Below are positions 2,863 to 63,054 of a stretch of DNA of 64,000 bases, piece after piece (positions within the stretch are counted from its first letter, which is position 1; each line of letters opens with the position of its first letter). A model generated the notes under the pieces. The model saw nothing but the letters and a program-made list of their open reading frames with translations. It ran no database searches and was not told the DNA's origin. Source of the DNA: Octopus vulgaris (Eukaryota); assembly GCA_951406725.2 (NCBI GenBank), contig OX597815.1:94302001-94366000 (forward strand), read 5' to 3'. Both the position numbers and the translations under genes were made by a program.

Positions 2863-3797
2863 GTGAATAATTACATCTAAAAGATGTGTTCCCTTCATTC
2901 ACTTTCGGATATAATCTCGGGTAGATGTAGTTGATGATGTGAGACTGTGTCCAACGTTCATTGGTTACTTATATCATGAGCCCTAACATTCTCTCGTTGA
3001 CGGGTCGGCAGTAATGGCCAAGTAAATCACTGCCTATCTCCTCTTTCTGTCTCTCAGTTTAGCTCTTCTCTCATGCCCCATAACCAACAATGGACATCTT
3101 TTGCTGGTTTCTCCTCACACCGCAAACGGTTGTTTTACAATCATTCCACTGGTTGTGAGCATTCTCTATCCTGATTGGACAAGGAATCATCTGTAGCCAA
3201 CCTCGAATGGGAATAGCTGTGTTTACCATCCCTTCTCGCTGAACTCTTGCAAAAGTTTAAACAGCTCCACCTCTATCATCATAACCACCAGCACCAGCAG
3301 CAGCACCACCACCACCATTACGTAAAGGAATTGCAAGCTCCCTTACAAGTTTAGCATCATGTTCCATGATTGGATCTTTCGTAGTAGATCGTTTCTTCAT
3401 GCAGTGATTGACGTCTTTCAATTCTTTTCTCACAAACTTGATATATGGTTCTGGGGCGTTTCTTGGATTTCTCTTGCTCAGTTTATTGTTATTGGTTGAT
3501 GTTACTGGGGTTTTCTCCCTTGATTGTTGTTAATAGATTTTCAACATTTCGTGAGTGATTGTCATCTAATTACAAAGATAATCTCCGTAATCGAGATTTT
3601 TCAACACACTCTCTTCTAGGCTCCATCGTGTCTGTCTGTCTGTATGTGTGTGTGTGTGTGTGTATATGTGTGTGTGTATGTGTGTGTGTGTGTATGTGAG
3701 CGTTACACAAGCACACAGAGAATACACTCTCTCTCTCTTTATAAAATATGCATATATATGCAAATGTATACATACATACATACATACATACATACAT

Positions 3798-3971
3798 AGG
3801 GGTGGCTGTGTGGTAAGTAGCTTGCTTACCGACCACATGGTTCCGGGTTCAGTCCCACTGCGTTGCATATTGGACAAGTGTCTTTTACTATAGCCTCGGG
3901 CTGACCAAAGCCTTGTGAGTAGATTTGGTAGACGCAAACTGAAGCCCGTCTTATATATGTATGTATGTATG

Positions 3972-4016
<45 letters not shown>

Positions 4017-4222
4017 ATATATGTATATATGTGTATATGTTTGTGTGTGTGTGTTTGTCCACCCACCATCGCTTGACAACGGATGTTGGTGTGTTTACGT
4101 TCCCGTAACTTAGCGGTTCGGCAAAAAGTACCGATAGGATAAGTACTAGGCTTACAAAGAATAAGTCCTGGGGTCGCTTTGCTCGACGAAAAGCCGTGTT
4201 CCAGCATGGCCACAGTCAAATG
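3798..4222 (+). mobile_element. SINE family A, full length
   Basis: gtggctgtgtggtaagtagcttgc...ggttcagtcccactgcg head, internal microsatellite, aacaagtaaaaga tail. Confidence 0.9.
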
Positions 4223-4397
4223 ACTAAAACAAGTAAAAGAATAGGGGTGGAGGGCTGACGATGAAGGGGAAGGAGAAGGTGGGTAGGAGTGAAGAGAAGA
4301 GAGAAGGAGAGTAGGATGAAGAGAAAAAGTAAGACTCGGAACAAGAGAGGAGAGGTGGGTGGGAGGAAGTAGGTATGAGTGGGCGAGGAGGAGGAGG

Positions 4398-4853
4398 TTA
4401 GATGAAGAGGGGGAAGAAAGTTGAGCCCATTGGCACAAAGGAGCGAAGAGAGAAGATTAATCCTTGTTCACGGCGCAAACGGGAGTCCGGATGGTCCCTG
4501 TGCAAGGACAATCCGAACACGGACAGATGTTGCAATGAGTGACCGGTAGAGCGGAATTGGCGTGAGATTGGGGTGTCATTGCCGAGTCGGATGTCTTGGA
4601 GGTGTTTCGCGAACCGGTCAGCCAAGCGGCGTCCCGTTTGCCCGATATATAGAGAAGGGCAAAGAGAGCAGGAGATGCAGTAGATGACATTGGTAGAAGT
4701 GCAAGTGAAGGAGTCGGTGATGTGATAAGGTCGATGATGGGTGCCGGTGAGGAGGGTGGTGTTGGAGAGGTAAGGGCAAGTGCGGCAGAGTGGGCGGGAG
4801 CAGGGGAACGAGACGGGTTGGGAGGTTGGGTTAGGGATGAAGCTGTGGACCAT
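4398..4853 (-). pseudogene. Penelope-like element GIY-YIG endonuclease fragment (Neptune-like Cys linker)
   Basis: PCSRPLCRTC linker, NVIYCISCSLC...YIGQTGRRLADRFAKH, terminal RLRREQGLI. Confidence 0.85.
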
Positions 4854-5548
4854 GAGGTCTCGTAGGTTGAAATTTCATGAACTATTGTCTGATGTATTTA
4901 TAAGTATTAGATTTAAATATTTTCGTAAAGCCAAAACAGTGCAAGCTATAGAAGATGAATAGTTTTTGGTAGATCTTTAAAATATTATTTATGTAACGCA
5001 ACGCATTCCTTATTTTTTTTACCCATTTGTAGAATATTCTTGGAATATTTTTTGTGCGACATCTGTTTCTGTCTCTTTCTCTTTCTTCGCATCTCTTTTA
5101 CCATCCTCTTTGTCTCTCTGTTTCTCTCTCTTCCCTCCCAATACCCTCCTCTGTTGCTTCGTCCCTCTACTCTCCACGAATTTTCTCTCTCCTCCCACTA
5201 CCACGTGACCCGTGACTATCTAAACTTCTCTCTTCTTTTTTTTCGCTTTGTCGTTGACGAAATCGGTTACGCTTCTTTGCTATTCTACCCCATTTTCTAC
5301 ACAGCTTGTTTACCTCTTCCTTCTTTGACTTTCTATCTTTTATTCTCTTTTTTTAATTTTAATTTTTCTTTGCTTTACCCATATTCGTCCGTCTGACAGC
5401 CACGCGGCTTTATTTTTTGGTTGTATATATGTCTTGCTACTAGTCAAAAACTCCGCATACCGGAGGCCAGCAAGTGTATGGGGTCATCATGAGAGAATGC
5501 GCGCCGTTTCGGGTCCTTCCTCTCAACGGTATCAATGCATACCACCCC

Positions 5549-6639
5549 GCCACAAGGGAAGTGCAGTTGTAATAATGGATACATCATACTATAGAAATCT
5601 TGTAATTTCCTTGCTTGATGACGACCTACATTATGAAAAAATTACCAACTACACCTCACAAAAAATAATGAAAACTCTATCTTCACTAATTAAAACCCAT
5701 GAAAAGGAACTAACAACCAAAGAGATTGACTTTCTAACAAACTTTAAATGCAAACCTAGCCTTTTCTATGGTCTGCCAAAAATTCATAAAAGCCAAATTA
5801 TAAATGAAACCATTAAAAAATCACCAAAGACATACATACACACACCTAACCCGGGGGACCTAAAACTACGACCCATTGTAGCTGGCCCAACCTGTGAAAT
5901 ACACAGACTAAGTCTATTTATGGACATCCTCCTGAAACCCTTTCTTAAACATATCGATAGCCATATCAGAGATGACTTAGATATGTTAAACCACATTCCA
6001 AAAAAAGCCAAGGAAGAAACAATCCTGGTTTCATTTGATGTAGTTAACTTATATACCAGTATACCTCATAATTATGGACTAGAGGCAATACAGTTCTGGC
6101 TGGACCAATTTCCGGAAGAAATACCAAAAAGGATCAGTAAAGAATTCATTACTAAATCAATTGAATTCATCCTACATAATAACCACTTCATGTTTGACAA
6201 TACATTTTACCGTCAAAAATCCGGAATTGCTATGGGTACAAGGGCAGCACCAGTCATTGCGAACCTAACAATGGGCTACATGGAAATAATCATCTACCAG
6301 GAATCTTTATCAATCTTTGGAAACCCCCTTTCTCAATACATAAATTGGAAACGATTCTTAGACGATTGTTTTATACTCTGGAATGAAAACACAGATAAAC
6401 TCCTAAAATTTAAAAACCTATTGAACAGCATAAACCCAAATATACAGTTCACAATGGAATACAACCAAAAGGAGCTCCCGTTCTTGGATATACTAATTAA
6501 AAAAATTAACCTTAAAATAGAAACAGACATTTTTCACAAAGCCACAGACGCCAAACAATACCTTCTTTTAATTCATGCCACCCAAGACACACTAAAACAA
6601 ACATCCCCTTCAACCTTGCAAGAAGGATATGCACAATAG
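5549..6639 (+). pseudogene. Penelope-like element reverse transcriptase, 5'-truncated, frameshift near 6565
   Basis: KGSAVVIM, FYGLPKIHK, LRPIV, SFDVVNLYTSIP, GIAMGTRAAP, WKRFLDDCF, LPFLD. Homology continues in another frame (FNSCHPRHTKTNIPFNLARRICTIV). Confidence 0.92.
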
Positions 6640-7526
6640 TGTCAGAACAAAATACCAGGAACTTTAGACTGCAAGAACTCAAAAACACCCTAATTGACAG
6701 ACATTACCCAGCTCAACTCATAGAGGATGGGATCAGACGTGCAACAGAAATCAACATAGAAACTTTAAGAAAAGTTCAACACAACAACACACCTTCCCCG
6801 AAAATACTACCTTACATATCTACATACAACCCCAGAAACAAAGAAGCCTTCACCATCACCACCCAGAATTTACCAATACTTCATAAGGACCCCGAATTAA
6901 AGGAAATTCTAAACATACACCAAATCATTAAAAGCTACAAACAACCTAAATCACTTAAAAAGATTCTCACAAAGGCAAAATTGCTTTCTGAAATTACGGA
7001 TGCAAAAGTAAAAAAATGTGGTAGATCGAACTGTGCAACATGTCCAAACCTGCTAGAAGGATCAGAATTCCTCTTTAAAGAGGGACAGAAATTCAAGATC
7101 AAATCTAACTTTACTTGTGCCTCTGAAAACATAATTTATGTCATAAAATGCTCGGGCTGCCACCGAGACTACGTGGGATCCACAGGACTATCACTCAGAT
7201 GTAGATGCACACTGCATCGACAACAGATTGCATTCCCAGAATACAGAATGGTACCTTTTAGTGAGCACATTGAGAAATGCGCAAAGCAACTACTACCACA
7301 ATTTTTAATCTTTCCATTTTACCAATGTGCTATCGGATCATCAACACAAATTAGATTAAACAAGGAAACATTCTTCATTGAAAAGTACAAGCCCAGACTT
7401 AACCATGCCAACATACTGATACAGAGAAATTCACACCAAGGGAAAAGGAAAAAAAATTTTAAGCGATTATCTCCCTTACACCGGAAGAAATCACTCATTA
7501 CCTCCCCTTATTTAGAACTCTTTTAA
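6639..7526 (+). pseudogene. C-terminal part of the same Penelope-like ORF: thumb/linker and GIY-YIG endonuclease
   Basis: CGRSNCATC linker, IIYVIKCSGCHRDYVGSTG, HRQQI, SEHI, RLNKETFFI. Confidence 0.9.
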
Positions 7527-7571
7527 ACATAAACATAACGATAACTCTATTCAACATAAACATAACGTCGT

Positions 7572-7610
7572 AAGAAATTTGAAAAGCTAAACGCGAAACC
7601 GGTCTTTCTT
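7572..7610 (+). ncRNA. Degenerate minimal type I hammerhead in the 3' pLTR of the Penelope-like element
   Basis: aagaaa-(t)TTGAAAA-gc/gc-GAAA-ccgg-TC-tttctt. Helix I is perfect, the CUGANGA box is mutated. Confidence 0.6.
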
Positions 7611-7723
7611 CTAAACTATGTCATTGTAAGAAAAAAAAATTTTTAATATTCTTCAGACATATTGACGCAAATATATATATTTTTTAACCTTTAAGCCTTC
7701 TGTAGTTTTTTCACTTTTTACTA

Positions 7724-7804
<81 letters not shown>

Positions 7805-7807
<3 letters not shown>

Positions 7808-7968
7808 CGCAGGCGTAGCTGCGTGTTGTTAAGAAGCTTGCTTCCCAGCCACATGCTTCTGAGTTCAGTCCCACTGCGTGATACCTTGGACAAGTGTCTT
7901 TTACTATAGCCTTGGGCCAACCAAAGCCTTGTGAGATTTGGTAGACAGAAAACTGAAAGAAGACCGTC

Positions 7969-7970
<2 letters not shown>
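7805..7970 (+). mobile_element. SINE family A 5' half
   Basis: aggcgcaggcgtagctgcgtg... head up to the microsatellite. Confidence 0.8.
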
Positions 7971-8052
<82 letters not shown>

Positions 8053-17951: not shown

Positions 17952-18074
17952 TGTGGATCATTGAGTGCTAGATCTGCTTGGAATTGCAAGGAATGTAATG
18001 TTTTTCCCGAAAAGAAGCATGCTGGGGTGGAAAACTGAACTGACATCTTACGGTAAAAAAGCTTGGGCATCCTG

Positions 18075-18970
18075 GGTATCAGAAGAGGGATTTTCCAGGT
18101 GATAGCCTATCTCCGTTGCTTTTTGTTCTCTGCATGATACTCCTGACCTTGGTACTTAGGAAAATAAACCCGGAGTATCAACTAAAGGAAAAATCTCAAA
18201 CAATCAACCACCTCCTCTTCATGGATGATTTGAAACTGTATAGCAAAGATGAGACACAGGTGAGTTCCTTGGTGAACAGGGTTCACTGTTTTAGTACTGA
18301 TATTAGAATGGAATTTGAACTCAAGAAGTGCGGAATAATCTATCTAAAAAGAAGAAAGGTACAGTCCCTAGCCGGGAATAGATTTACCGAACAGAGACTT
18401 GATTAAACAAGTTGAAACGGAAGGATGCAAATACCTTGATGTACTAGGTTTCAACGAGATAATGGAGAAAGAAATGAAAGAGCAAATAAGGATGGAGTAA
18501 TTCCGAAGACTGAGGTTGGTGTTGCGCTCAAAATTGATTGGACGGAATATAATCGAAGCAGTTAATACATGGGCGATAGCATCACTTCGGTATGGAGCCG
18601 GAATTATAAAATGGCAAAAGAGAGTAATGAAGAAAATGGATACCAAAACCAGAAAAATGTTGACAGTATACGGAGCCTTTCACACTAAGAGTGACACCGA
18701 TAGGCTGTATTTGTCCAGAAGAAAGGGTGGGAGAGGTTTAATCAGTCGCTAGAGTTGTTTCGAAGCGGAGGAAAACAGCCTAGGGTAGTATATAAAAAAA
18801 TAAGGCCGTGGATCGACTGTTGAAACACTCATCAACACTGAAAATTGTGTAACTAAAGAAATATTTAAACAAGAAATTAACTAAAAAGGTGGCTATGGAT
18901 GAGGAGAAGTAACCTGAAGATGGAGACAGAAGCACTCATATGCTCAGTTCAGGAACAAGCTTTAAGGATC
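18075..18970 (+). pseudogene. R4/Dong-like non-LTR retrotransposon RT fragment
   Basis: IRRGIFQ(G)DSLSPLLFVL, INHLLFMDDLKLY, AVNTWAIASLRYGAGII, DRLYLSRRKGGRGL, ETEALICSVQEQAL. Multiple stops and frameshifts. Confidence 0.8.
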
Positions 18971-32694: not shown

Positions 32695-32741
<47 letters not shown>

Positions 32742-32865
32742 CAACAATTGAGGAATGGCCTTAATAGGCCATTCGACCCACTAGAAAGAGCAGCCAGGAC
32801 TCAAACCGCCAAGTAGTGGTAATTCAGAAATTAAAGGAAAATTTAAAAACATTTACCCTAATTCA

Positions 32866-32964
32866 TCTTTAGACAATGTATTGTTTCGGTGTTTTTAATG
32901 GCAAACCAGCTTAATTAAATTAAATTAAGTCAATTAACCAAAGGCTACACCTCATCGGTAAAGA
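32866..32964 (-). ncRNA. Type I hammerhead motif, copy 1
   Basis: Reverse complement of the 33601-33699 motif with one substitution in the helix III palindrome. Confidence 0.75.
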
Positions 32965-33600
32965 GGCCAGGAGAGACGGATATACACGAGGCATCTGTAT
33001 CTATGCCCTAGGAATATCTGCCCTAAAATTTTCAAAACCATCGTACTCGCGCCAACTTATCAGCAGTAAATATAAACTGCTGATTCAATTTCAGAATTAG
33101 TCAGAAAATCATCAATTAATCAATATAGGGTAGCAAAAAATTCAATAGAAATTTATCGCCACCAGCGGTCTAGTGAGAAAGAGAAAATAGTCAAAGACTA
33201 TATATATAAATTCAACAACAATTGAGGAATGGCCTTAATAGGCCATTCGACCCACTAGAAAGAGCAGCCAGGACTCAAACCGCCAAGTAGTAGTAATTCA
33301 GAAATTAAAGGAAAATTTAAAAATTTAAAAATTTAAAAAATTTAAAATTAGGGTAAATGTTTTTAAATTTTCCTTTAAATTTTCCTTCTCACTAGACCGC
33401 TGGTGGCGATAAATTTCTATTGAATTTTTTGCTACCCTATATTGATTAATTGATGATTTTCTGACTAATTCTGAAATTAAATCAGCAGTTTATATTTACT
33501 GCTGATAAGTTGGCGCGAGTACGATGGTTTTGAAAATTTTAGGGCAGATATTCCTAGGGCATAGATACAGATGCCTCGTGTATATCCGTCTCTCCTGGCC

Positions 33601-33699
33601 TCTTTACCGATGAGGTGTAGCCTTTGGTTAATTGACTTAATTTAATTTAATTAAGCTGGTTTGCCATTAAAAACACCGAAACAATGCATTGTCTAAAGA
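33601..33699 (+). ncRNA. Type I hammerhead motif, copy 2 (U4C variant, long helix II)
   Basis: tcttta-CCGATGA-ggtgt...acacc-GAAA-caatgcattg-TC-taaaga. Confidence 0.8.
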
Positions 33700-34074
33700 T
33701 GAATTGGGGTAAATGTTTTTAAATTTTCCTTTAATTTCTGAATTACTACTACTTGGCGGTTTGAGTCCTGGCTGCTCTTTCTAGTGGGTCGAATGGCCTA
33801 TTAAGGCCATTCCTCAATTGTTGTTGAATTTATATATATAGTCTTTGACTATTTTCTCTTTCTCACTAGACCGCTGGTGGCGATAAATTTCTATTGAATT
33901 TTTTGCTACCCTATATTGATTAATTGATGATTTTCTGACTAATTCTGAAATTGAATCAGCAGTTTATATTTACTGCTGATAAGTTGGCGCGAGTACGATG
34001 GTTTTGAAAATTTTAGGGCAGATATTCCTAGGGCATAGATACAGATGCCTCGTGTATATCCGTCTCTCCTGGCC

Positions 34075-34173
34075 TCTTTACCGATGAGGTGTAGCCTTTG
34101 GTTAATTGACTTAATTTAATTTAATTAAGCTGGTTTGCCATTAAAAACACCGAAACAATGCATTGTCTAAAGA
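34075..34173 (+). ncRNA. Type I hammerhead motif, copy 3
   Basis: Identical to 33601-33699, 474 bp downstream. Confidence 0.8.
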
Positions 34174-34394
34174 TGAATTGGGGTAAATGTTTTTAAATTT
34201 TCCTTTAATTTCTGAATTACTACTACTTGGCGGTTTGAGTCCTGGCTGCTCTTTCTAGTGGGTCGAATGGCCTATTAAGGCCATTCCTCAATTGTTGTTG
34301 AATTTATATATATAGTCTTTGACTATTTTCTCTTTCTCACTAGACCGCTGGTGGCGATAAATTTCTATTGAATTTTTTTGCTACCCTATATTGA

Positions 34395-34444
<50 letters not shown>

Positions 34445-34575: not shown

Positions 34576-34620
<45 letters not shown>

Positions 34621-34623
<3 letters not shown>

Positions 34624-34850
34624 GGTCTCAAGATGAACCGCATGAAAACGAAGTTCATGCAGTCAGACAACGTACCAACAGGTCGAATGGTGATCGGCAG
34701 TGATGAAATAGAGGAGGTAAAGGAATATGTCTACCTGGGACAGGAAGTGAATATATGCCAAGATATCGAAAAGGAGATCTCACGGAGAGTAAGGGCCGGA
34801 TGGAAGGCGTTTAATGGCATAAGGGATTTGCTCAAGGGCAGGTTGAACAG
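34621..34850 (+). pseudogene. RTE-clade LINE RT C-terminal fragment
   Basis: GLKMNRMKTKFM...IEEVKEYVYLG...EISRRVRAGWKAF. Confidence 0.8.
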
Positions 34851-35560
34851 GACCCACCTCAAGACTAGTAGCAAATTCCAACCGTTTCAAGAGAGAGGGC
34901 TTACCCGGAAAACAAGAATAAAGAGTAGTGTCATCAGCATAAACATTAATGAGTTGAAGAACATTGACAGAAAGATCGTTTATGTAGATGAGAAACAGAG
35001 TTGGATCAAGAACAGTGCCTTGAGGAACACCGAGGTTGATAGAATACTCAGGTGTAACACCGTTCAGAGTCACATGTACACAACGACAAGAAAGGATTGA
35101 CCTGATAACGTCAAAGACCTTTCTTCATACTCATTAGGTAGAGAGCTTATGGAGCAAAGCAGCATGCCAAACCCGATCAAATGGTTTGATATATCAAGAG
35201 CTATAGCACGATCCTCTTCAGATTAATCCATAAATCGGGTCATGCGGTCTGTAATAACAGTCAGATCAGCAGCAGAACGAGAGCCACGAAAGCCATACTC
35301 AACATCAATAAGGAGTTCCAAGCTTTCAAGAAACTCAACCAGCCTGTTGCTGATGAGTCGTTCAAAGGCCTTGCTAACAATCGAGAGGAGACTAACAGAA
35401 CGATATATGCTTGGATCAGAAGGCCCACCATCATTCGCGAAAAGTGAGACAACATTAGATACCTTTCAGCAAGATTGAAACAAGACTTAGCAAGACAAAA
35501 ATTAGATGACTTAGAGAACAAAGACTACATCTCAGGAGTTGATTATTTCTAGACTGTCAC
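34850..35560 (-). pseudogene. CR1/L2/Jockey-group LINE RT fragment
   Basis: GVPQGTVLDPTLFLIYINDL, YADDTTLY, ALDISNHLIG/FDRVWH, YGFRGSRSAAD. Confidence 0.85.
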
Positions 35561-40061: not shown

Positions 40062-41768
40062 TATACAAAAATTATTAAATACAATTAGTAAAAAAATGTA
40101 CTTATGTATAGATATAAAAAAGTCCGTCTTGCACGGAATGGAAATGATATCGGGAATTAAGGGGGTTGAGTAGGAGTTTTATGAGTCGAGCAGTTGTTTC
40201 TGGGGGTTTGGTGACACAAAATAATGCTTGCAACTTAATTCCGTCATCGGATACCACCAGCCTCCGTCTACAGGGAAGAATCTTAAATTCGAGGTGTTGA
40301 CAGAATGGAGATTAAATCTGGAATGATTTTGTGGAGAACTAAGTGCATTAGAAAGAGGACTTGGAGTGTCTTTAGATAGAGAGTAGTGGGAGGAGAAAAT
40401 AGATTTTGGGGTTAGGGTTAATGATGAGGCTAGTGATAATAATAGAGGTAGAAAGTGTGAGGAAGGGGGAAGGGTGGTTTCGGTAGCATGTGAAAGATGA
40501 CCTTTGTGCTTGTATGAAGGCTATAGAATTAAAGGTTGAGATAGAGAAGCGGGGATGGCTATTATTTGAGGGAAATGAGTTTTAAGCTTAGTGTTGGGAA
40601 TATAGTAGATGTTTTCGCGGAAGCCGCTTATTTGGAGGGCCTGATTATAGTAAGGGGCATGAGTGTTAAAAATGTCTTCATTAGCAAATAAGCTAGAGAT
40701 TCTGATATATATGTCTATGACTACGCTAGTAAGGGTAAGTTTAAGGTGATTAGAGAGGACATTTATGTATTGTAAAGATTGGTTTTGTTTATAGAAAGGG
40801 TGGTATAAATTTGTGTGTAAGTCGAGAGTAACGTCTAAGAAATTGGCTACCTTAGGGTCAATTTCGAATGAAATACTTAGATTATAGTTTTTAAAAAATA
40901 GGGCTTTCTTAGTTCGTTCCTCTGACGGTCGAGATTATCTAATTGTTGAAAACAGTGCGTCATCCCTGTATAGTCCGCTGGATAGGTTGGGGAAGTATTG
41001 TTTAATTTAAGTAACCTGGGATGAGTCCAATGCACTCATGGTTATATCGAAGTAATCCGCAAATGAGTTGCGGGTTAAATTATTATCCTTAACGTGAATT
41101 AGAGTCTTCCTCGCAGCCAGGATAATATTGATGTCCGATCGGGAGATGGGAGCATATTTTCGGGCGAAGATTAAGATTTTATTTAAAAGAACTGATGATA
41201 TTTATGAATAATAATTTGAGATGTCAAACTGAAGGAAATGGGCGTGTTGTTTATCATGAAGAGAGTGAAACCAAATGCAATTCCAAAGTGAAAGCTTATA
41301 GTTAGTTCGAACAAGTGGTAGAATACGATCAATGATGCATGCATTTACTAATTCGACCTAAGTCGGATTACTTAATAGATTCTCTGATGTTATTTATTCT
41401 TGTAAACACAGGTACTACGCATCTTTCACGCACTTTGCCAAATCTATATAATCCCATTATAAGTTTCCATTTCCCCAAAAATTTTAAACCAAGACACGCA
41501 AAAAATCCACAAAATCATTTAATCTCCATTCTGTCAACACTTCAAATGTAAAATTTTCTCCTGTAGACGGAGGCTGGTGGTATCCAATGATAAAATCAAG
41601 TTACAAGCATTATTTTGGATTACCAAACCCCCAGAAACAGCTGTTGGACTAGTAAAACTCCTACACAACCCTCTTAATTCCCGATATCATTTCCATTCTG
41701 TGTATGTCGGACTTTTTTTTATATGTATACATTTTTTGTATTAATTATATTTAATATTTTTTGTATAT
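40062..41768 (-). mobile_element. Penelope-like element remnant (YRDD RT) bracketed by inverted ~260-bp pLTRs
   Basis: FLQFDISNYYS, FDITMSALDSSQV and GLYRDDAL on the minus strand. 40062-40325 is the diverged reverse complement of 41512-41768. Confidence 0.8.
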
Positions 41769-41857: not shown

Positions 41858-41888
<31 letters not shown>

Positions 41889-41890
41889 TC

Positions 41891-42284
41891 GAATTTTGAA
41901 TCAAAAGCGGCTCCTATGACGTAAACATTATCGATGTCACATACTGTATGTGTTTTGTTTGATCGCTCATTATTTAAGGGATAGCGTCATTATTTACGGG
42001 TATGCTAAGAAATACTGAATACATCGAACCAGGCGAAACAACTCACCCTGCAAGTGATCGAGAACGATGGATATTGATATTTTGCTGTATTTGCAGTTCG
42101 TCGACATCGAGCAATCAAGTCAACTAGTCTGGTTTGAGATATTCTGTGTCTTTTAACACTCGACGTCATAAAGAGATTTTACCCTCCGACGCTAATCCGC
42201 AGCTAATGAGCGTCTAAATAAAACACATACAGTACGTCACATCGATAATGTTTACATTATCAGACCTGCTTATAATTCAAAAAT
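41891..42284. mobile_element. MITE/foldback-like element with ~85-bp imperfect TIRs
   Basis: gtaaacattatcgatgt.ac.tactgtatgtgtttt.ttt and its reverse complement at 42205-42284. Confidence 0.65.
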
Positions 42285-43022
42285 TAGTTTTGTTTCACTT
42301 GTGCGGCGCTTTTGCACAGTAGTAGATAGATCCTACCCTATTTGCTTTTATACTTTAGACCAGCGATTGCATTTCGTTCCATTCGATTGCAGGATGCCGA
42401 CGAGCGGCAAATGCAGCGAAATATCGATATTCATCGTATTCAGTGAGTTGCCCACCTGGTTTCAGGTATTCAGTGTTTTTTAACACTCGGCCTCTTAAAG
42501 GGACTTTTCCCTCTGATGCTATTCCGCTGCTAACCAGCGCCTCAACAAAACATACAATAAGAATGTGACACTGATAAGGCTTATACATATTCCTATACAT
42601 GCACACACAAGCGCGCACGCAGACACACAGACACACACACACACGCGCACACACATGCACGCACACGCACGCACCCACACACACGCGCGGGAACACATAA
42701 GTACATGCGCGCGCAAACACTCACACATTTATAAGAAGTACACTCTAACATTTGAATCCCTTCCTCGCTTCTTCCACATGGTTATAACCTTGAACAGAGG
42801 TTCATAATGATGTCTACCTTGGATGAACATGTACAGCAGCTGAACCAAATAAATGCATCAATGGTCATTAGGAGACTTATCCAGCAGGAACACGTGTCCG
42901 AAAGGAAATGAATTTGAATTTAAGGAGAATAATACTGAAATAAACAAATTCTGAAAATATATAATTCTCTATTCTTCATTATGATGATATGATTATATAT
43001 ATATATTATGTACACACACACG

Positions 43023-48227: not shown

Positions 48228-48689
48228 TTAGAGGAACTGTGGTTGTTCATTTGTAGGTAACAGGGAAGCAATGAGATGATAATCTTGCCCCTGAACTTTG
48301 AACGTCGGTGTCAATCCATGCCCACCTATCTCCTTAGATGCACCAAAATATGTCATTTGAAAAGCGGAGTTGTATTGTCTGATATTGTTCAGAAAATCCT
48401 TTGATTGGATGGAAGTGCCTTCCAGAAGATCTATAAGAGGTTGAGGAGGAGCTGATAGAGCTGGTAATCTTACCTTACCGCCTGAGCAACACATGCTATT
48501 AGTTTCATTTGGAAATTTTGAAGCTTTGCAGTAACGACAATTTGAGTTTAGCACACCAATTTGGACAAAATTATAATTTTTATAAGAATGTGATGGATCA
48601 TATCTGAAAGCACTTCCAGAAGTTGTGAAGAACGAATTTGTATGTAGTCTGTTTCTGAGAGCTGTTCTGTTGAACGTCTGTTTAATCAC
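48228..48689 (-). pseudogene. Helitron RepHel N-terminal zinc-finger region
   Basis: CRYCKASKFPNETNSMCCSGGKVRLP...FLNNIRQYNSAFQMT.FG...FKVQGQ.YHLI.SLLP. Confidence 0.85.
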
Positions 48690-48724
48690 GAAAACGTTGT
48701 TTTAATGATTCAGCATTAAGTGCT

Positions 48725-49092
48725 GTAGCATGCTTTTGCTATCTTGGGAAAGTCTCATCTCGCTTCTGCCTTCAAACTCCATTTGACGTGCTGCAGCATA
48801 CGTTTGTTGATCTTGAGAAAGCTTCATCTTGATTCTGTCTTGAGACTCCATTTTGATGTGCTGCAGCATGCGTTTGTTGATCTTGAGAAAGTCTCATCTC
48901 GCTTCTGTCTTGAGACTCCATCTGATGTACTGCTGTTTACGTTTGCTGATGTTGAGAATGTCCCATCCTCCTGCTCTCTTGACACTCCATTTGACGTGCT
49001 GCAGTAAGCATTTGCTGATCTTAGAAAGTCTCAAATCCCTTCTGTATTGAGACGCCATCTAACGTGCTGCGGAATGCCTTTGCTGATCTGGG
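48725..49092 (-). repeat. ~69-bp coding minisatellite (about 5 copies) upstream of the Helitron ORF
   Basis: Repeats translate on the minus strand as approximately HAAARQMESQDRxxMxLSQDQQT. Confidence 0.8.
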
Positions 49093-49871: not shown

Positions 49872-50601
49872 CACGTACATACATATTTCTCTGTCTATCT
49901 CTGCTTATACGTCATGCAAATACATCATCGATGTATGTGACAAATGTTCATTACACGCACACTTACACAGAGAAACACGCTCACTTACGCATACACACAC
50001 GCACACATGCATATATACCTTCACTCGCACACATATACTCGTATATGTTACAATGATAAACCTCGTGCACTTATGACGCACGTGTTTCAATGAGTGTGTT
50101 AAAAATTGTTTGATTACGTACGGTGTGTTTATGTATGTACATGTTTATGTATACGTGTTTGTGGGTAATAGACAGACAGAAAGAGAAAGAGAGAGAGAGA
50201 GAGAGAGGAGGAGGAGGAGGAAGTGGAAAGAGAGAGGAAGGGAGAGAGCGGCTGTGTGACAATGTATGTTTTTGACAAGCAATGTTATGTAGATCAGCCA
50301 TATTTAATTGGTCAATCTGAAAGACGAAGCCAAACACCGAAAAATTGGTCAACAGAAGTCCGGAAGATATTTTCAGGAAATTGTAGGAGCTATTTCTATT
50401 GAGACTGATCATATCTAATCTAGTTCATCTCCTATTGATGTAAAAAACTTATTACTTTGCATGTTTGTTTATATGTATGCGCGCCCGCACGTGTGTATGT
50501 ATACATATATATGTGTGTTTCCCCAATAAAATATTTCCTACCTTATACATACATACATACATGCATACATACATACATACATACATACATACATACATAC
50601 A

Positions 50602-50682
<81 letters not shown>

Positions 50683-50685
<3 letters not shown>

Positions 50686-51277
50686 AATTAGTAAATAAAT
50701 GGCACAACTAAGTACCGATATTTACTGGAAATAGCGAACGTAAAAATACGACGCTAATGTGTAGCTTCACCGCGTATGTATTAGCAAAAATGCGTGTGTG
50801 CAACAAAATAGAGAAAAAAACCGTCTTACCTCCAGGGAGAGCATCTGAAAGAGGAAACACCCGGAAAATGGATAATGTGGTACCTGCAGGTTTCAGGTTT
50901 TGCAAGATATGTCTCTCACCCATATTTTGCTTTACCTTCTTCAGCCAAACATATACCAAGACGAAATCTACGATGTTACCACATTAATACTAACACACTC
51001 GACTGAAATACGGAACGCTAACAGTACGAGAAACGGTGAAGAAGTTTCAAAATATCAGTAATGCAATACAAAGTATTGCCTTCCAGTAAAAAGTAGCCCG
51101 TGAGGGAAAAATGCACAAATTAGTAAATAAATGGCACAACTAAGTACCGATATTTACTGGAAATAGCGAACGTAAAAATACGACGCTAATGTGTAGCTTC
51201 ACCGCGTATGTATTAGCAAAAATGCGTGTGTGCAACAAAATAGAGAAAAAAAACCGTCTTACCTCCAGGGAGAGCAT
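50683..51277 (-). mobile_element. Non-coding element of 1.4 x 432-bp monomer with an intact hammerhead, inserted in (TA)n
   Basis: 50683-50844 is repeated almost exactly at 51115-51277. Hammerhead lies in the unique part. Confidence 0.88.
50878..50947 (-). ncRNA. Type I hammerhead ribozyme, canonical core, extended helix II
   Basis: tgg-CTGAAGA-aggt-aaa-gcaaaatatg/catatcttgc-aaa-acct-GAAA-cctgcagg-TA-cca. Confidence 0.88.
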
Positions 51278-51405
51278 ATATATGTTAACCTCGTGAAGGG
51301 ATAGTTGCATCCAAGGAAATACTGGTTCAATACCTAGTATTGTTGGGGAATGAAATTCCTTTAAAGCAATATTATATATATATATAGTATGTATTAAGCA
51401 CATAG

Positions 51406-51924: not shown

Positions 51925-53516
51925 TTGCGGCCAAAATGTTCAGAACGGCATTATTTTCGTCAGAAAAGTAGGTATAAATTTTTATCAAATTTCTTTTATA
52001 TTCTATAATTTTCACAGACAATAAATACGATATTATTTGTTATAGTCTGAGATTTTGGTGTAATTTGAGAGGATAATACAAAAGTCATGGATGATTTAGT
52101 GATTTACTGCAAAACCCATGGCGACCAAAAGGATCAGAACAGTTGCTTTTACTCCGTGTTTTAGTATATTGAACCGACGAACTCTAATGTTTTGAATTTG
52201 TTTACTTGACGGTTCGTTTACTAAACATTAGTAAGAATATCTGCAGTGTACTTTGTTTATATAATGCCACTTACTCCGTTACCAATTCATCAGCAGATTA
52301 TTAAGCTTCGAAAGAAGGATAATTTAAGTATTGGGTCTATTGCAAAGATTGTTAACAAGTCAAAAAGTGTTGTTCATGGTATTCTTAAGGTCTACGATGA
52401 TTGTGGTTCGTGTGAAGCAAGAAAGTCTTTAGGTAGGCCAAGAAAAACGACCAAGAGAGAAGATCGTGCTATGGTAAAGTTGGTTAAAAAGGACAGATTT
52501 AAAACTGCTGCTGCTGTTTCTCGGGAAATGGGCATTGTACTGAAGAAAACTTTATCTCGAAAAACTGTGTCTCGTCGTTTAGTTGAACATGACCTACAAG
52601 CAAGAGCACCTGCAGTAAAGCCACTGGTCAGCTCCAAGAATAAAAAGTGTCGTCTTACCTTTGCAACCGAACATGTTTTGTGGTCTCAAGAAAAATGGCA
52701 AACGGTGCATTTCAGTGATGAATCTAAGTTTATGTTATTTGGCTCAGATGGGAAAAGTAGGTGAAAAATTGTCGCCTAAATGCCTTAAGACTAGTGTTAA
52801 ATTCGGTGGAGGAAGTGTCATGGTTTGGGGGATGATATCTGGAGATGGTGTGGGGCCCTTTTGGTGCGATTACATGGAAAGGTAAATGCAGGAGTTTATA
52901 AACAACTTGTGAAAGATCATGTCTTGCCTGTGCTGAGAAATTCAACTAAGCGACCACCCATATTCATGCAGGACAATGCCCCCTGTCACAAGGCTAAGGT
53001 GGTCATGAACTTCCTCAAGGCTGAAAAGGTTATTGTTATGGATTGGCCTGCTCAAAGCCCAGATCTCAATCCTATTGAAAATGTGTGGAATATTCTAGGA
53101 GAACGTTAGAAAGCCAGAAATCCTAAAACAACCGAGTAATTATGGAATGCCCATCAGGAAGAAAATTGAATAAGATCATCCAGCAAGAAATTGAAAAATT
53201 AGTTTCCCCATGCAGTCGAAGATGTCAAAGTGTGATTGAAGCTAAAGGGCTTCACGCTAAATATTAAATAATTCCAGTATTCTCTGTCATTTTTGATTAT
53301 TTTGTTATTTTTTCAACCTTTCTGATCCTTTTGGCCGGCATGGGTTTTGCACTAAATCACTAAATCATCCATGACTTTTGTATTATCCTGTCAAATTACA
53401 CTAGAATTTCAGACAATAAATAATATCGTATTTATTGTCTGTGAAAATTATAGAATATAAAACAACTTTGATAAAAAATTATACCTACTTTTCTGACGAA
53501 AACAATGCCGCAACTG
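51922..53516 (+). mobile_element. Tc1/mariner transposon (DD34E) with ~220-bp IR/DR terminal repeats
   Basis: TA-CAGTTG...CAACTG-TA ends, long TIRs, internal direct repeats gcggccaaaatgttcagaac/gcgaccaaaaggatcagaac. Confidence 0.95.
52264..53267 (+). pseudogene. Tc1-family transposase, disrupted
   Basis: Paired-like HTH, GRPRKTT, FSDES, GGGSVMVWG, QDNAPCH, SPDLNPIEN (34 residues between D and E). Deletion, frameshifts and stops. Confidence 0.93.
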
Positions 53517-54353: not shown

Positions 54354-54421
54354 TTTTTTAATTTTATCTAGTTTCAGCTCACGAGCTGTGGCCAAGCTGG
54401 GGCACCGCCATATATATATCT

Positions 54422-54818
54422 TTTTATCTTTTACTTGTTTCAGTCATTTGACTGTGACCATGCTGGAGCACCGCCTTTAGTCGAGCAAATCGACCCCAGG
54501 ACTTATTCTTTGTAAGCCTAGTACTTATTCTATCGGTCTCTTTTGCCGAACCGCTAAGTTACGGGGGCGTAAACACACCAGCATCAATTGTCAAGCGATG
54601 TTGGGGGCCAAACAGACACACAAACATATACACACACATACATATATGAAAACATATATACGATGGGCTTCTTTCTGTTTCCGTCTACCAAATCCACTCA
54701 CAAGGCTTTGGTCGGCCAGAGGCTATAGTAGAAGACATTTGCCCAAGGTGCCACGCAGTGGGACTGAACCCGGAAACATGTGGTTCGTAAGCAAGCTACT
54801 TACCACACAGCCACTCCA
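54422..54818 (-). mobile_element. SINE family A, full length
   Basis: Reverse complement of the family A consensus. Confidence 0.9.
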
Positions 54819-54849
54819 TGTATGTGTGTCTGTGTGCTCGTCTCATTGT

Positions 54850-55040
54850 TCGTTTGCTATCTCCGGTGTAAGTGTGTTTGCGTTCACGTAACATAGCGGT
54901 TGGGTAAGAGACCGAGAGAATAAATATCAGGCTTCAAAAAAAAAAAAAGAAAAACATGTACTTGAGTCGATTCATACAATGGAAAATCAAGGTGGTGCCC
55001 CAGCTTGGTCGTAGTCTAATGACTGAAAGAAATAAAAGAT
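54850..55040 (+). mobile_element. SINE family A 3' half, diverged
   Basis: cgtaacatagcggtt...ggtggtgccccagcttggtcgtagtctaatgactgaaa. Confidence 0.7.
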
Positions 55041-55189
55041 AACTCCCATCTTTGTGACGAGAACTATGTTACTATATTTGTATGTATGCATGCATGTATG
55101 TATGTATATGTGTGTGTATGTATGTATGTATGTATGTATGTATGTATGTATGTATGTATGTATGTATATATGTATGTATGTGTATGTGT

Positions 55190-57930: not shown

Positions 57931-58006
<76 letters not shown>

Positions 58007-58007
58007 A

Positions 58008-58425
58008 TCTTTTAGCTTTTATTGTTTCAATGGTTAGATTACAGCCATGCTGGGGCACTGCCTTGAAGAATTTTTAGTCAAATGAATCAACTACAGTAAT
58101 CTATTTTAAACCCTGGTTCTTATTCTACCTGTCTCTTTTACAGAACCACTATGTTACGGGAACGTAAATACATTAACACCGGTTGTCATGCGGTGAAGGG
58201 GGATAAAAACAGACACAAAGACACACAGAGATACACACACACTCAGATATATACTGATATACGATGGGCTTCTTACAGTCTTCGTGTACTAAATCCATCC
58301 ACAAAGTTTTGATCAGCCTAAAGCTATAGTAGAAGACACTTGCCCAAGGTGCCATGAAGCAGGAGTGAACTCGGAACCATGTGGTTTGAAAGCAACCTTC
58401 TCACGCACACAAACACACCTGCTCC
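58008..58425 (-). mobile_element. SINE family A, diverged
   Basis: Reverse-complement similarity to the consensus. Confidence 0.8.
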
Positions 58426-58524
58426 TATAAACATTGTATAATTTACGCAAGTATAATGTGAAAGTACACATATACGTAAAGATATGTGTATTTATGTGGG
58501 TTTCTGCATTCGTATCTTTGTATA

Positions 58525-58888
58525 CTCTTTTACTTTTTTACTTGTTTCATCGAGCAAATCGACCCCGGGACTTATTCTTTGTAAGCCCAGTACTTATTCT
58601 ATCGGTCTCTTTTGCCGAACCGCTAAGTGACGGGGACGTAAACACACCAGCATCGGTTGTCAAGCAATGCTAGGGGGACAAACACACACACAAACACACA
58701 CACACATACATATATACATATATACGACAGGCTTCTTTCAGTTTCCGTCTACCAAATCCATTCACAAGGCATTGGTCGGCCCGGGGTTATAGCAGAAGAC
58801 ACTTGCCCAAAATGCCACGCAGTGGGACTGAACCCGGAACCATGTGGTTGGTTAGCAAGCTACTTACCACACAGCCACTCCTGCGCCT
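58525..58888 (-). mobile_element. SINE family A with an internal deletion in the 3' part
   Basis: Ends ccacacagccactcctgcgcct. The cagtcatttg...ctttag segment is missing. Confidence 0.88.
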
Positions 58889-59379
58889 ATGTACATGCAT
58901 ACGCAAGAAATGCCACGAGTTTCGTACTTTCTCTCGAAAGATGGTGATAAAAGCTTGTATTACATTTCATCTTTTACTATTCCTTTATACTGTCAGATGC
59001 TACTAAATCTTTTTCTTCTCCTTTCTTTCTCTCTTGCTTATATCTCTCGTGCTCCCGTGTTTCCTTTTTTGCCAAACGCAAATTCAGTATTTCCTGTGTT
59101 CCTCGCTTGTGATGTCGCTTTCACATGTCTTCTCTTTGTTTGTTTTGTTTTGTTTGTTTGTTTGTTTGTTTGTGACACTCACCCTCCTTCTAAAAAGATG
59201 TCATACCATCTCTTCGCTCACTCTTCAAACACACCGTCTTTACACTTCGTATTACGTTCTCTCTCTTACTCTTTCCCTTCCTCTTTCTCTTTCCCTCTCT
59301 TACTCTTTCTCTCTCTCTCTCTTACTCTTTATCTCCCTCTCCTACTCGCTCTCTCTCTGTTACTGTACACACATACATA

Positions 59380-62419: not shown

Positions 62420-62780
62420 TTTGACTTGCTTATTAGGCTGTGGTCAGTCTGGGGCATCACCTTGAAGTAATTTAGCCGATTGAATCGAACCCGGTATTAC
62501 ATATTTTGAAACCTGGTACTTACAGGGACGTAAATACACCAACACCGGTTGTTAAGCAGTGGTAGTGGTAAAATACTGACACAAAAACACACATACACAC
62601 GTAAACACGTCATATTCACATATACGATAGACTCTCAGTTTCCATGTGCCAAATTCACTCACAAGGTTTTGATCGGCTCGAGGCTATAGTAGAAGATACT
62701 TGTCAAAAGTACAAGGCGGTAGGACTGAACGCACAACTATGAGGTGGGGAAGTATACTTCTCACACAGTAGCCTGCGCCT
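62420..62780 (-). mobile_element. SINE family A, old copy
   Basis: Reverse-complement similarity. Confidence 0.75.
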
Positions 62781-63054
62781 GTATGTATGTATGTATGTAT
62801 GTATGTATGTATGTATGTATGTATGTATGTATTATGTATGTATGTATGTATGAATGTGTGTGTGTGTGTGTGTATGTATGTGTATGTATGTATGTATGTA
62901 TGTATGTTTTCTTTTGTTTTTAATTATTTAAAATTCTTCCTCTGAGGAAGGAATTGGTTTCTAACAAAGATACAAGGTTCCATCGATGGTATGTAGGTAA
63001 CGAAACCAATGTCACATTTTAAACTTGAAATCGTTTTGCATACTTTTACTGCCC

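Follow-up and report, generated by a model that had tools for sequence, protein, structure and literature searches.

What is a hammerhead ribozyme doing in a small repeat that encodes nothing, and from what kind of RNA would such a repeat be copied? The question is raised by a 595-nt insertion in the genome of Octopus vulgaris, found in the window analysed here (64,000 nucleotides of contig OX597815.1, assembly GCA_951406725.2, positions 94,302,001 to 94,366,000), in which a non-coding unit begins a second time before the insertion ends (Table 1). At stake are the role of the hammerheads of Penelope elements and the template behind partial tandems, which may be circular or a linear RNA made by read-through. 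Copying from a circle was put forward for elements of this kind in 2014 and 2020 (PMC4209133, PMC7229834) and is still a proposal, and the sole in vitro study found cleavage to be dispensable (PMC11167929).

The insertion is a young member of a non-coding, abundant repeat family with a hammerhead motif. Its two terminal copies (162 and 163 nt) are identical in 162 of 163 alignment columns at a period of 432 (blastn E 3e-77), with no mismatches and one extra A within an A-run as the sole difference, which bears out the almost perfect recurrence described in the original prediction. Counted in the RNA sense from the predicted hammerhead cut, the insertion begins at +37 (51277) and ends at +198 (50683). 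The circularised 432-nt unit holds no ATG ORF of more than 76 codons on either strand (71 sense, 76 antisense), and no coding relic was found within it. Runs of (TA)n had been described on both sides; this is correct for the left side, but the right side has only ATATAT followed by a different repeat. No target-site duplication could be distinguished from the TA run. The right-flank repeat of about 100 bp lacks its first ~11-14 nt at the insertion junction. Just after the cut, the unit carries an ATG with acceptor-like and donor-like sequences, a possible relic of the intron of a Penelope pseudo-LTR (pLTR). A donor-like site lies 12-52 nt after the cut in all four elements compared post hoc (the 432-nt unit, two further hammerhead units of 474 and 327 bp and the Penelope element of the same window), recalling the pLTR intron.

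Table 1. Positions of the insertion, its parts and related elements in the window
Feature	Positions	Strand	Basis
Entire insertion (non-coding 432-nt monomer, 1.38 units)	50683..51277	minus	repeat alignment
3' redundancy copy, pseudo-LTR-like; deepest-covered segment of the 432-nt family	50683..50844	minus	
5' redundancy copy (upstream unit, 5'-truncated)	51115..51277	minus	
Microsatellite (ATAC)n(TA)27 adjoining the 3' end, probable target site; (TA)27 at 50630-50683, preceded by (ATAC)n	50545..50683		
ATATAT filler (51278-51283), then separate high-copy ~100-bp repeat	51278..51370		
ATG at +37 after acceptor-like UUUCAG, then donor-like GAG/GUAAGA at +52	50824..50844, also 51257-51277	minus	sequence
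Type I hammerhead motif, predicted cut 50881/50880	50878..50947	minus	sequence and descriptor
Two segments complementary to the cleavage strand (predicted)	50953..50986	minus	50953-50957 from circular fold; perfect 10-mer 50977-50986 from local folds
Long imperfect stem (predicted), 51260-51197 with 50958-51041	50958..51260	minus	folding
474-bp family, tail-out inverted 1.26-mer and 2.15-mer, CCGAUGA-core hammerheads	32725..34399		
Third family, older, copies ~80% alike, unit of 327 bp, partial tandem plus inverted arm	41887..42602		
Decayed, near-complete autonomous Neptune-type Penelope-like element, ends in (TC)n(TA)n	5329..7805	plus	

The hammerhead motif has a complete core, as had been described, and the predicted cut lies exactly where it had been placed. 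Helix I consists of 3 bp (UGG/CCA), the core boxes are CUGAAGA (50944-50938) and GAAA (50894-50891), and helix II (50937-50895, 43 nt) is built of 4 bp, a 3x3 loop, 4 bp, an A.C mismatch, 5 bp and a 9-nt loop; helix III (50891-50882) is palindromic, and the cut is predicted after GUA. A descriptor made of the core boxes, the palindromic helix III and helices I and II matched the real window at four places (this motif, 42397-42431 and two sites within the 474-bp unit), and matched none of 5000 element shuffles and none of 30 window shuffles, an upper-end estimate of significance as the descriptor was composed after the motif had been seen. The Rfam search of the element returned no hammerhead and one unrelated match (E 7.9); window-wide, no hammerhead stood among the 150 of 251 matches listed, the matches being microsatellite-driven miRNA. 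The motif lies outside the terminal redundancy. With its single hammerhead, this locus could not free a unit on its own.

The 432-nt unit belongs to a dispersed family, as the original prediction had held against a single-locus tandem duplication. At least half of 44 sampled words were present in 20 of the 24 public sequencing runs listed (9 studies, 4 organism labels), and we compared the contigs of four runs (X5, X7, X10 and X18) with one non-redundant unit plus the right flank (50845-51370). Two DNA runs gave 1122 and 816 matching contigs, in identity bands from 85 to above 99% and mostly of 85-99%. Summed depth was 10^4-10^5, a figure that gives no copy number, while the listed long contigs with flanks had depths of 23-244, and this difference indicates that the family is large. 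Contigs of X7 and X10 (362 and 296 nt, two differences each) span the hammerhead and continue 17 nt past the start of the reference unit, so the 432-nt unit occurs closed head to tail and without an ORF in other samples. These contigs are unspliced, with no splice joints, although the two runs are only guessed to be RNA; none of the listed runs that carry the element is recorded as RNA. Exact-pattern scans found no matches in metagenome contigs and none in viral contigs. The unclassified ~100-bp repeat of the right flank (51280-51370) was likewise found in all four runs, where other copies are flanked by (TA)n and loose ends lie before 51280-51284 and behind 51350-51365.

The same contigs indicate how copies of the family end. 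Depth at 51133-51240, representing the RNA-sense 3'-terminal ~110 nt, was 5.7-fold (X5) and 7.3-fold (X18) that at 50899-51114, compared with about twofold expected from the redundancy alone; diverged subfamilies sharing 51133-51240 and overlapping short contigs may add to this peak. Among the 24 of 232 loose-end rows listed, 12 fall inside the element, and the best supported of these 12, with 7 contigs in X5 and 2 in X10, has a TA-rich overhang and lies before 51122, only 7 nt from the 3' end of the present insertion (51115 equivalent), while the six rows listed for X18 include none at 51122. Other loose ends inside the element resemble diverged subfamilies (e.g., one supported by 5 contigs behind 51239). 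In the RNA sense, the 3' end is thus largely fixed beside (TA)n, at 51115-51122 (about +190-198), and many copies are probably 5'-truncated stubs. Taken together, the best-supported end and the 3'-skewed depth argue for a fixed start with 5' truncation and not for random circular permutation. The circularly permuted ends that had been anticipated are not supported within the limits of contigs, which drop rare variants, so that minor permuted ends may escape the loose-end tables (24 of 232 rows). No strand-changing joints were found in the contigs of the four runs, and the present copy has no inverted arm.

Variants among the contigs bear on the hammerhead itself. The 12 fixed core positions are untouched by the 26 substitution rows listed for the unit, and the free position, 7, does vary (U replaces A in 40% and 31% of depth), a pattern suggesting that the motif is under constraint. 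As X5 has zero cover at 50845-50880, which we treated as a filter effect, and little at 50881-50898, it is mostly X18 that shows the 3' half of the core to be free of variants. One X10 contig has both sides of the helix II pair 50930/50902 changed (G-C to A-U) and the A.C mismatch repaired; it also carries G50935A, which breaks a helix II pair unless the partner, outside the view, has changed as well, and four further differences whose positions are not listed.

In folding predictions, the sense strand of the 432-nt unit reached z -4.6 as a linear and -4.3 as a circular molecule, the opposite strand z -3.1, and 12 control windows z -4.4 to +1.7 with 2 of the 12 below -3. Helix II is formed in the predicted fold (P 0.7); helices I and III have P <=0.006 and <=0.002, respectively, in the circle, and the cut site is paired to 50953-50957 with P about 0.7. 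The segments at 50953-50957 and 50977-50986 are thereby predicted to keep a single hammerhead unfolded. A perfect 10-mer complement such as that at 50977-50986 was reached in 12 of 3000 shuffles, and in the full-unit fold it pairs elsewhere; the 10-nt complement was also considered as a ligation splint and dropped, its pairing probability being 0 in full-unit folds. Two copies of the helix III palindrome have a computed duplex energy of -17.7 kcal/mol. When the long imperfect stem was compared with family variants, 3 of 8 kept and 5 of 8 broke the pairing with none compensatory, which gives no covariation support, and unit-wide 13 of 26 variants fell on unpaired positions against about 11 expected, giving no support to the fold. 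The predicted self-blocked state fits Penelope-type hammerheads, for which a palindromic helix III, a short helix I, a long helix II and low activity have been described (PMC4209133).

The window contains other elements of the same design, and the expectation of independent families was confirmed: three families and an autonomous Penelope-like element occur within it. Local alignment of the 432-nt unit with the 474-bp unit gave z 1.0 and -0.8 against 100 shuffles, in agreement with the lack of similarity noted by eye. In the 474-bp family both 3' ends, about +131-147 and +231, adjoin (TA)n, and the 2.15-mer of this family spans two hammerheads. At the centre of the 474 insertion (33324-33379) there is (AAAATTTA)n filler with a short forward piece from +9 after the cut, and the left-arm hammerhead has one substitution within the helix III palindrome. 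The hammerhead of the 327-bp family (42397-42431) has a CCGACGA core and a palindromic helix III. Of the five arms in the window, the present insertion included, three have a 5' end shortly past the cut, at +23, +25 or +37 (a post hoc P of about 0.009), and the other two at +161 and +281.

The Penelope-like element at 5329-7805 encodes a reverse transcriptase matching Pfam RVT_1 (E 1.5e-8) with the CX4CX2C linker of the Neptune/Nematis type; relatives of its C-terminal part carry GIY-YIG, and a frame break lies near 6560-6636. The named relatives of the retroelement protein in the window include Argonauta hians (51-52% identity) and Octopus bimaculoides, followed by bivalves. About 120-165 nt before the microsatellite end of the element, near 7577-7610, there is a hammerhead-like motif with a possible U3-A8 core, which we call degenerate because one extra base before the core made the descriptor miss it. 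On the sense strand, the 432-nt unit did not resemble either end of this element (z -0.2 and -0.6); no autonomous partner was thus found in the window, which counts against the account favoured below. An antisense match to its 3' end (z 3.8, 0 of 100 shuffles) was set aside as gappy, AT-rich, on the wrong strand and one of 30 comparisons.

Several other repeats share the window. A piece of a second GIY-YIG-bearing Penelope-type ORF (4401-4874, minus strand, Pfam E 3e-4, below the cut-off) lies opposite the main element, and by eye we take 40524-40934 (minus strand) to be a Penelope/Naiad-like RT piece, 18044-18403 and 34600-35124 LINE-like RT pieces, 52225-52761 a Tc1-like transposase relic and 48231-48701 a Helitron-like piece. 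There is also a 69/139-bp minisatellite at 48720-49089 (about 79% between copies) and a SINE-like family of ~400 bp with internal (TA)n at 501-1449, 3741-4240, 7770-8052, 54410-55179, 57964-58896 and 62520-62835.

Several features of non-autonomous Penelope-like elements are present in the 432-nt family: a pLTR partial tandem, a fixed 3' end (among the 24 of 232 loose-end rows listed), 5' truncation and, upstream of the 3' end, a hammerhead whose helix III is palindromic. With Neptune-type and other Penelope-like elements (Cervera and de la Pena 2014, PMC4209133; Craig et al. 2021, PMC8557442; Frangieh et al. 2024, PMC11167929), whose pLTRs carry hammerheads, it shares a partial tandem with terminal redundancy, 5' truncation, a microsatellite target, a 3' end 100-230 nt past the cut, a palindromic helix III, a short helix I, a long helix II and a donor-like site in the repeat; unlike the autonomous ones, it has no RT or endonuclease (GIY-YIG) ORF between the repeats. 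Chlamys elements such as MRC1 are likewise ORF-less Penelope dependants with pLTRs and head-to-tail copies, but they are algal and most of their clade is without hammerheads (PMC8557442).

By structure and copy number the family also belongs to the animal non-LTR retrozymes (Cervera and de la Pena 2020, PMC7229834; Li, Clavereau and Pollet 2026, bioRxiv 10.64898/2026.07.22.740005), with self-cleavage and a circle as putative properties. Shared with these are a non-coding unit of 150-450 nt (here 432) with a single hammerhead of type I, a large number of copies in the genome, a low GC content and co-occurrence with Penelope elements; a mollusc example is the mussel retrozyme of 350-390 nt (PMC7229834). 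Unlike retrozyme arrays in animals, the present copy is a dispersed 1.38-mer with one hammerhead, a (TA)n target and a 43-nt helix II, although dispersed monomers have been described as well (bioRxiv 10.64898/2026.07.22.740005). The predicted self-blocking is unusual among animal retrozymes, mussel excepted (PMC7229834). The 'active' class of the preprint consists of arrays with at least two hammerheads, against one at this locus of the 432-nt family, while the 474-bp family has its 2.15-mer; eight of nine frog dimers did not cleave (bioRxiv 10.64898/2026.07.22.740005). Plant LTR retrozymes and hammerhead viroids resemble the octopus unit in being highly paired, with a complementary segment that is predicted to block the hammerhead. 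However, the plant elements have a type III hammerhead inside each LTR and a 4-bp target duplication, where the octopus insertion has type I, outside the repeat, and no duplication, and there is no sign here of the RNA-RNA replication of viroids. The literature searched, with most subscription papers and the repeat databases outside the search, described no hammerhead element from octopus or another cephalopod. The original prediction of a general system thus stands as regards the design, but such elements already have a name, and the 432-nt family is a further example of known animal retrozymes and not a new system.

Mechanistically, we consider it probable that the element is a non-autonomous Penelope-like element (animal non-LTR retrozyme) copied in trans by a Neptune-type RT/GIY-YIG protein through target-primed reverse transcription. 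Minus-strand transcription of tandem or partial-tandem loci would give an RNA longer than the unit, in which the single-copy hammerhead would be mostly folded off and cut only sometimes, probably as a dimer through the helix III palindrome or with the aid of protein. The Penelope protein would nick the (TA)n run and start reverse transcription from a fixed internal site about 190-198 nt past the cut, most copies ending early as stubs of ~120 nt and a few passing the uncleaved hammerhead into the next unit and halting close to where the template has its 5' end, which would leave the terminal redundancy; the 5' end would be joined with AT filler and a small target deletion. The present copy would have started at +198, gone back through one uncleaved hammerhead and stopped at +37 of the upstream unit. 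Several steps have published counterparts: purified Penelope protein nicks AT-rich DNA, primes at fixed internal sites about 85 nt or more past the hammerhead cut and in vitro uses mainly uncleaved RNA (PMC11167929), and partial tandems, inverted arms, tails and a microsatellite bias make up the published Penelope signature, so that the inverted, partial-tandem, tail-out layout with unequal 3' ends of the 474 and 327 families matches described Penelope-like insertions (PMC8557442).

As to the template, a linear RNA with its 5' end at an upstream hammerhead cut is, on balance, our preferred candidate over a circle, with a small share left to other routes. From the upstream cut to +198 such an RNA measures 630 nt and the insertion 595 nt; the 1.38-mer, which falls 36 nt short of this RNA, fits inside it, so a circle is not required. 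The either/or of the original prediction, a circular or multimeric RNA, is a fair one, while the circle itself is unneeded. The competing account, which we regard as possible but doubtful, departs from this one solely in the template: double self-cleavage and ligation would give a 432-nt circular RNA, on which the Penelope enzyme would start at +198 and roll past the junction to make 1.x-mers. Related animal retrozymes of 150-450 nt do accumulate as circles (PMC7229834), the well-folded sense unit with its paired cut site would protect a circle, and a circle easily yields the 2.15-mer of the 474 family, which counts against the linear RNA by needing either a circle or a longer uncleaved transcript. 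However, circular and linear forms are predicted to fold about equally (-114 vs -115 to -120 kcal/mol), the opposite strand and two control windows fold well too, the single hammerhead of this locus could not release a unit, and a circle predicts no stop just after the cut, yet three of five arms stop there.

Other explanations do away with a mobile unit or with the Penelope machinery. The insertion might be a deletion remnant of an autonomous Penelope element, its pseudo-LTRs joined locally and immobile as a unit, and its design does match a pLTR, with most of the family depth in a 3' stub like that of truncated Penelope tails; we think this unlikely, since contigs from other samples and under other species labels cover the complete unit without an ORF, including the hammerhead-spanning contigs of X7 and X10, the redundancy copies are identical but for one A, and the unit lacks a coding relic. 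A SINE-like element moved by a LINE (e.g., RTE), with redundancy through template jumping, would also account for a fixed 3' end and 5' truncation by LINE-type priming, and what we presume to be LINE-like RT fragments lie in the window (see above). This seems to us quite improbable, as the inverted-arm partial tandems with unequal tails of the sister families and the palindromic-helix-III hammerheads are Penelope traits and no target duplication was found. A tandem duplication at a single locus with a chance motif has next to nothing in its favour beyond the missing Rfam match: the high-copy family in public runs refutes the duplication, and the shuffles without a match and the variants that spare the core speak against chance.

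We return, then, to the non-autonomous element copied by a Penelope protein and to what it would mean. A broader and more tentative suggestion is that the host has several unrelated viroid-sized RNA parasites of Neptune-type elements. Their self-blocked hammerheads would become active solely as dimers or through the Penelope protein, and the cut would set the template, either by forming its 5' end or by giving the junction at which a stable circle of 432 nt is closed and then copied by rolling from a fixed start. At least three independent, high-copy families without an ORF in one genome would supply many natural end points. Ends of the 5' side just after the cut, a hint in our data, would separate the linear from the circle models. 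If the parasite reading is true, thousands of copy ends would record what Penelope hammerheads are for.
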